Virus record (IMG/VR): IMGVR_UViG_2660238398_000003
Source of the DNA: a virus
Taxonomy: Duplodnaviria; Heunggongvirae; Uroviricota; Caudoviricetes
DNA: 7,908 nt
Strand: one strand, 5' to 3'
This document shows, one piece after another, positions 1,751-1,922 of the stretch. The notes beneath the pieces were generated by a model. That model was given only the letters and a program-made list of their open reading frames with translations, did not search any database and was not told where the DNA came from. The translations under genes were made by a program, and so were the position numbers. Within the stretch, counting starts at the first letter, position 1, and the number at the start of each line of letters is the position of its first letter.

Positions 1751-1795
1751 TGCGACCATCTGTTGCTTACCTTGCGACCATCTGTTGCTTACCTT
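1751..1795. repeat. Perfect tandem duplication, 2 x 22 bp (gcgaccatctgttgcttacctt) inside the porin gene
   Basis: Read directly: copies at 1752-1773 and 1774-1795. It shifts the frame by +1 and produces the stop at 1807-1809. Confidence 0.95.
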
Positions 1796-1853
1796 CAGTC
1801 AAAAGGTAAAGACCTTGGTGTTCATGGTGACCGAGACTTAGTCAAGTATGTCG

Positions 1854-1922
1854 ATGTCGGTGCTACTTACTACTTTAATAAAAACATGTCGGTGCTACTT
1901 ACTACTTTAATAAAAACATGTC
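1854..1922. repeat. Perfect tandem duplication, 2 x 32 bp (atgtcggtgctacttactactttaataaaaac) inside the porin gene
   Basis: Read directly: copies at 1854-1885 and 1886-1917. Together with the 22-bp duplication the net insertion is 54 bp, so the frame is restored downstream. Confidence 0.95.

Follow-up and report, generated by a model that had tools for sequence, protein, structure and literature searches.

Six short tandem duplications across a porin gene and its neighbours in a draft prophage contig of Escherichia coli

As deposited in one short draft contig, the porin gene of a lambdoid prophage is interrupted by two perfect tandem duplications, of 22 bp and 32 bp, which together add exactly 54 bp. 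The question raised by this locus is whether these extra bases belong to the gene as an old in-frame feature, whether they record natural mutation in a prophage, or whether they arose when the contig was put together. The window, meaning the whole stretch of DNA that was analysed, is 7,908 bp long and is the entire contig AOQK01000099.1 of draft assembly GCA_000397405.1 (E. coli, 2013). It holds in order essD (minus strand), the porin (plus strand), quuD, ylcG, rusA, ybcO, ninE and ybcN (minus strand), a gene for an alpha/beta hydrolase (plus strand) and ybcK (minus strand). Judged by the annotation of E. coli UPEC132 (NZ_CP040456), whose 13.7-kb homologous locus was the reference for pairwise alignment, and by lambdoid phage records, this is the gene order of a DLP12-like lambdoid prophage. 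The porin lies between the Q antiterminator and the holin essD (19-234, minus strand, from the list of open reading frames and the UPEC132 annotation) and on the opposite strand, which is the placement of the NmpC/Lc moron of DLP12/PA-2 type, and lambdoid phage records with a like arrangement name the porin NmpC, OmpD or OmpC.

Placed on the UPEC132 annotation, the contig has its left end 18 nt inside rrrD, the lysozyme gene, and its right end in emrE (positions 3001 and 10744 of the UPEC132 locus), and so the assembly broke within genes on both sides of this 7.9-kb piece. Cargo in the nin region comprises the alpha/beta hydrolase (4625-5623, plus strand), with matches to BD-FAE and Abhydrolase_3, and the large serine recombinase YbcK (5973-7499, minus strand), each 100% identical to its UPEC132 counterpart. 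In the UPEC132 prophage the serum-survival gene iss, a bor homologue, is found about 1.1 kb past the left end of the window (1647-1940 of the UPEC132 locus). No known RNA families were found in the window.

The porin as written and as restored

The porin gene, of the NmpC/Lc general porin type of DLP12-like prophages, occupies 895-2031 on the plus strand. Its length as written, 1137 nt, is divisible by 3, and the gene is interrupted, the called open reading frame running from 895 to 1809 (304 aa). The 22-bp unit TGCGACCATCTGTTGCTTACCT is doubled perfectly at 1751-1794 on the plus strand (copies 1751-1772 and 1773-1794, with 1 nt of microhomology at the junction), and the frame shift that it causes leads through an aberrant tail to a stop at 1807-1809. 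The 32-bp unit ATGTCGGTGCTACTTACTACTTTAATAAAAAC, on the same strand, is likewise doubled perfectly at 1854-1917 (copies 1854-1885 and 1886-1917), is followed by a 5-nt microhomology, ATGTC, at 1918-1922, and brings the reading back to frame 0. Tandem Repeats Finder recovers both, as 1751-1795 (period 22, 2.0 copies, 100% matches) and as 1854-1922 (period 32, 2.2 copies, 100% matches). Translation of 895-2031 in frame 0 meets four stops between the two units and regains the porin sequence past the 32-bp unit, ending in GLVYQF and the terminal stop. An earlier sequence-only reading had proposed just this arithmetic, in which 22 and 32 bp sum to 54 and return the C-terminal region to its original frame, and the frame-0 translation confirms it; the claim that the stretch between the duplications is out of frame and closes a 304-aa product at 1807-1809 is borne out by the open reading frame and its translation.

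That reading had also held that both duplications must be removed for the gene to be restored, and asked for the deletion to be made in silico. With one copy of both units deleted a porin of 360 aa is obtained, 100% identical to WP_000737271.1, the UPEC132 protein annotated as 'porin OmpC'. Deletion of the 22-bp copy alone gives 344 aa with a wrong tail, and deletion of the 32-bp copy alone still gives 304 aa, as that reading required. The restored product matches the Pfam family Porin_1 over its full length (1-337 of 337, 504.7 bits) and scores 521 bits against the cut-off of 484 for the NCBIfam 'porin OmpC' subfamily NF007841. Aligned with solved OmpC structures over residues 24-360 it has no residues in excess where the duplications fall, and its 90% cluster has members named porin OmpC, OmpD and 'outer membrane porin protein LC'. 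The porin as written matches Porin_1 only over 1-271 of 337 and loses positions 272-337 along with the C-terminal Phe; intact C-terminal beta-strands ending in Phe are thus missing from it, the VYQF ending being placed behind the four stops. From the known topology of OmpC and OmpF, such a product would stop about four beta-strands before the end and lack the terminal Phe. On its sequence, therefore, the porin as written would be a pseudogene; in other respects the gene is an unremarkable NmpC/Lc prophage porin.

Six duplications within two kilobases

The porin duplications turn out to be two of six. The differences between the contig and UPEC132 all fall within 383-2810 and come to six tandem insertions, three substitutions and a single 1-nt indel. 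In order these are a tandem gain of 31 nt at 383 and of 40 nt at 483, substitutions at 966 and 975, gains of 22 nt at 1751, 32 nt at 1854 and 19 nt at both 2281 and 2392, a substitution at 2808 and a 1-nt insertion at 2810; the duplicated lengths are hence 31, 33 (plus 7 of filler), 22, 32, 19 and 19 bp, and the duplications themselves are confined to 383-2429. From 2900 to 7908 the contig is 100.0% identical to UPEC132 and to two other genomes as a single 5,009-nt piece. With A966 and C975 discounted, there are no private substitutions in 7.7 kb beyond the change at 2808-2810. Tandem Repeats Finder reports no perfect two-copy tandem repeats in the 13.7-kb UPEC132 locus, its rows there being an 11-nt AT-rich repeat that is also in the window and imperfect iteron-like repeats (70-87% matches) that sit in the replication-gene region, outside the window. 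The duplications are not a matter of chance.

Two of the six lie in the spacer between essD and the porin. A 31-bp unit is perfectly duplicated in tandem at 383-444, beginning in the loop of a terminator-like hairpin (396 to 375, minus strand) that stands just upstream of the holin essD. Further along at 483-555 a 33-nt unit is repeated with a 7-nt filler, ACACCGC, between its copies, a net gain of 40 nt. A nearby template for this filler was sought and the idea rejected, there being no same-strand copy in the window or in the 13.7-kb UPEC132 locus; across these two sequences ACACCGC occurs elsewhere only as its reverse complement, at least about 3 kb away (window position 3665) and with no match in the flanks.

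A further two fall inside quuD, the gene for the Q antiterminator (2220-2641, minus strand), which as written is frameshifted, with a called product of 92 aa. Here the 19-bp unit CCTTCAATTATGCCCTCAG is doubled perfectly at 2281-2318 and is followed by a 5-nt microhomology, CCTTC, that extends to 2323, and the 19-bp unit ACATACATAATAATCTACT is doubled perfectly at 2392-2429. Removal of both 19-bp copies yields a 127-aa QuuD identical to that of UPEC132. As written the prophage would be without late-gene antitermination.

About 380 nt beyond the last duplication is a small complex indel at 2808-2810, where GATATA-AGCG has become GATAAACAGCG by a T to A substitution and a 1-nt insertion of C. This private change frameshifts ylcG (2704-2865, minus strand) and turns its product from 46 aa into 53 aa. 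It is absent from the 1,157 complete E. coli records that carry the segment, and that it is a borrowed allele was considered and rejected, the sole exact 21-mer match being one metagenome contig of unrelated sequence. The change creates the hexamer AAACAG, a second copy of which stands 20 nt upstream, a match that may be no more than coincidence.

The two synonymous substitutions in the porin, A966 and C975 (966-975, plus strand), seem to have another history. None of the 2,139 complete E. coli records that include this porin segment has the pair, but IMG/VR record UViG_2700989432_000009 does (at its positions 1512-1534), and this record has none of the six duplications. The two substitutions are accordingly a natural allele and not damage, and their membership of a 'mutation shower' is rejected on the same ground. 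At the closest variant sites on either side, 891 and 1032, the contig agrees with UPEC132, and so the patch taken from another allele is at most 140 nt long; the sequence suggests either a short gene conversion or mosaicism as its source.

The six events form three pairs, one in the essD-porin spacer, one in the porin and one in quuD. Taken to start with the left unit's second copy and to close with the right unit's first, the enclosed blocks measure 102 nt in the spacer, or 109 if the filler is counted, 113 nt in the porin and 111 nt in quuD. That six events should fall within 1,865 nt of the 7,744-nt ancestral contig has P = 0.004, and that, given this span, they should fall into three pairs each separated by at most 92 nt has P = 0.003; the agreement of block lengths to within 11 nt has P = 0.04, with an ambiguity at the junctions of up to 5 nt. 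The six junctions have microhomologies of 0, 0 (plus the 7-nt filler), 1, 5, 5 and 1 nt. Under random placement at least 5 nt is expected with P = 0.0065 per event and in at least two of six events with P = 6e-4, the four junctions with 0-1 nt being at chance level. The pairing around blocks of about 102-113 nt looks technical, and the two 5-nt microhomologies look polymerase-made. The centres of the groups of anomalies, at about 433, 1736, 2211 and 2646 in ancestral coordinates, are spaced by about 1302 (roughly 3 × 434), 475 and 435 nt, a possible period near 440 nt that would be a lead towards a tiling or technical origin, with four points too few for testing.

Searches elsewhere recover the units in single copy and the junctions not at all. 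A composite probe of the six junctions was run against 5,426 complete E. coli genomes and 50,697 phage records and matched none of them, a meaningful negative because the search mode used does report matches of 28 nt. Examples of the junction k-mers are CTGTTGCTTACCTTGCGACCATCTG and CTTTAATAAAAACATGTCGGTGCTAC. Of the junctions taken singly, that of the 22-bp unit was found in neither IMG/VR nor 185,579 species-representative (GTDB) genomes nor the JGI metagenomes, and that of the 32-bp unit is absent from IMG/VR. The 22-bp unit itself is present exactly once in 448 complete E. coli records and is single also in UViG_2700989432_000009. Each unit, 19-33 nt of unique sequence, is doubled here and single in all other genomes examined, which is not the behaviour of a phase-variable repeat. 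At the protein level the 304-aa porin, the 92-aa Q and the 53-aa YlcG were each found on one contig only, AOQK01000099.1, among 153 billion gene positions, and no match to these aberrant proteins comes from any Logan read-run assembly.

Assembly fault, mutational burst or gradual decay

What is observed is that the duplications are in the deposited contig, that they are private to it, clustered and paired, and that their removal restores the wild-type genes exactly. Their technical origin is what we infer. Taking the sequence evidence together, a local assembly or gap-patching artefact of the draft is on balance the probable source of the duplications. Short read-sized pieces would have been joined to their neighbours with the overlapping ends left in, so that tandem duplications resulted, and the strain itself would carry an intact ordinary NmpC/Lc-type porin, an intact Q and an intact ylcG. 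False 'homotype' duplications of about read size that arise at contig boundaries and become tandem after scaffolding are a documented assembly failure (PMC8081667). All duplicated copies here are perfect with no accompanying divergence, and the absence of the aberrant proteins from the Logan assemblies fits an artefact, if weakly. An artefact is preferred over one burst of real mutation because six events in one lineage are implausible and no comparable event is seen at this locus among hundreds to thousands of other carriers. Against it stand the 5-nt microhomologies ATGTC and CCTTC at two of the six junctions, which polymerase slippage predicts and the simple abutting of pieces does not, and a contig accuracy that at the base level is otherwise perfect. 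Quite why the damage is limited to 383-2810 is also accounted for neither by GC content nor by a second copy in relatives: low GC or a coverage bias was rejected as the cause since the undamaged 6000-7800 is more AT-rich, as was a paralogy limited to the damaged stretch, both 300-2850 and 2900-7908 having a second place in UPEC132 and its relatives. A fixed k-mer (k-1) overlap was similarly set aside as the source of the unit lengths, which vary (19, 19, 22, 31, 32 and 33).

A real origin in one event is possible and less probable than the artefact. It supposes a single tract of low-processivity, error-prone synthesis over about 2.4 kb that slipped back by 19-33 nt six times, for which recombination-dependent or break-induced replication with repeated template switching (MMBIR-like) and unprocessed 5' flaps of short repair patches are the candidates, and by which the porin, Q and ylcG were knocked out together. 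The 5-nt microhomology at two junctions (unexpected by chance, as given above), the 7-nt filler at one junction, the substitution with a 1-nt insertion 380 nt past the last duplication, and the tight clustering of the changes beside 5 kb of flawless sequence all agree with it. Break-induced replication in yeast shows template switching and about 1000-fold more frameshifts (PMC3678771), and MMBIR leaves several microhomology junctions close together (PMC3678771). Such a tract does not predict that the events should be paired so regularly about blocks close to 110 nt long, and base substitutions are wanting along it; no independent copy is seen in any other assembly, Logan read-run assemblies included, and zero such events are found at the locus in about 450 to 2,100 other carriers of the allele. 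We know of no such duplication cluster described in a natural E. coli genome. Were the duplications genuine, they might then be put down, somewhat more tentatively still, to one template-switching episode in the resident prophage of a wild E. coli, in which each disengagement left paired short back-copies about 110 nt apart and so inactivated the porin, the Q antiterminator and ylcG, making this a bacterial small-scale counterpart of MMBIR or 'chromoanasynthesis', or else the mark of a cDNA- or flap-mediated patch process.

The accumulation of real slipped-strand mutations one by one, in a prophage module that is decaying or counter-selected and where loss of the porin and of Q-dependent lysis is tolerated or favoured, is improbable. 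Duplications between short direct repeats are a classical type of spontaneous mutation, IS1-interrupted alleles exist in other strains, and in K-12 the prophage nmpC, a dispensable gene, has already become a pseudogene by way of IS5 (PMC11677980). However six events of one rare class would have to accumulate with no private substitution in 7.7 kb beyond 2808-2810, confined to 2 kb (P = 0.004, as above), with two hits each in genes that the first had already killed and with no intermediate carrying one to five of the junctions in 5,426 genomes. The sequence-only reading had called the porin as written a pseudogene, and its truncation at the sequence level stands; its duplications are however two of six private ones in 2 kb of a short draft contig, and a natural pseudogene from two mutations is for that reason among the least likely readings. 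Far less probable again is that the 54 bases are functional or ancestral, as an 18-codon insertion variant of the porin, a site of programmed frameshifting or a phase-variable switch. The arithmetic of 22 + 32 = 54, with the C-terminus back in frame, is all that speaks for this. Against it are the four frame-0 stops, the fact that the inserted sequences are exact copies of their neighbours, the two copies per unit with no variation of copy number in the population, and like events that hit Q out of frame (38 bp) and non-coding DNA. Intact homologues with the same extra 18 codons, by which the sequence-only reading itself would have been overturned, were looked for in the E. coli genomes, phage records and other collections named above, and none was found. 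An ancestral or functional insertion, recoding and phase variation are on these grounds rejected, and effectively refuted. The weight which that reading had placed on 'exactly 54 bp' is probably misplaced, in that a sum divisible by 3 has a prior chance of 1/3 and the in-frame 54 is best read as such a one-in-three coincidence because the 19 + 19 = 38 of quuD is not in frame.

Meaning and relation to known systems

As a finding about a gene the interrupted porin carries little weight, prophage nmpC-type porins being dispensable, often pseudogenes and well described. Its value is rather that of a warning, since the porin 'pseudogene' and two broken neighbours in public data depend on one short draft contig, and read support is needed before genes so supported are taken as lost. 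Should they prove real, the duplications would preserve a rare natural trace of template-switch mutagenesis acting locally in a bacterial genome.

In gene order, and in the full-length OmpC/OmpF/PhoE-type porin obtained on restoration, the locus is like NmpC of DLP12 in E. coli K-12 and Lc of the lambdoid phage PA-2. The K-12 nmpC is a prophage pseudogene interrupted by IS5 (PMC11677980), and is in that sense likewise inactive, but through an insertion element, whereas here the interruption consists of two short tandem duplications found in no other genome and seen in the deposited sequence alone. With the false homotype duplications that Rhie et al. 2021 (PMC8081667) describe at contig ends or in gaps that were closed, the six share that they are tandem and perfect, that they stand at the edges of roughly read-sized blocks, that they are private to one draft contig, and that their removal restores the wild type. 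In the described cases the duplicated stretch is about as long as a read, in contrast to the 19-33-nt ends around blocks of about 110 nt found here, where two junctions lie on 5-nt microhomology. With slipped-strand, FoSTeS and MMBIR template switching (PMC3678771) the locus has in common direct tandem duplications, two of them at 5-nt direct repeats, a filler, closely placed junctions and a small complex indel nearby. Unlike those systems it has four of six junctions with 0-1 nt of microhomology and a regular pairing. The duplications that follow defects of flap processing, of the rad27 or polA 5'-nuclease type, are a further comparison for its tandem duplications. Overall, genes disrupted by short tandem duplications, pseudogenes of prophage porins and falsely duplicated stretches in draft assemblies are all known in kind, and the six duplications here come down to an assembly error or to one odd burst of mutation rather than to a new kind of gene.
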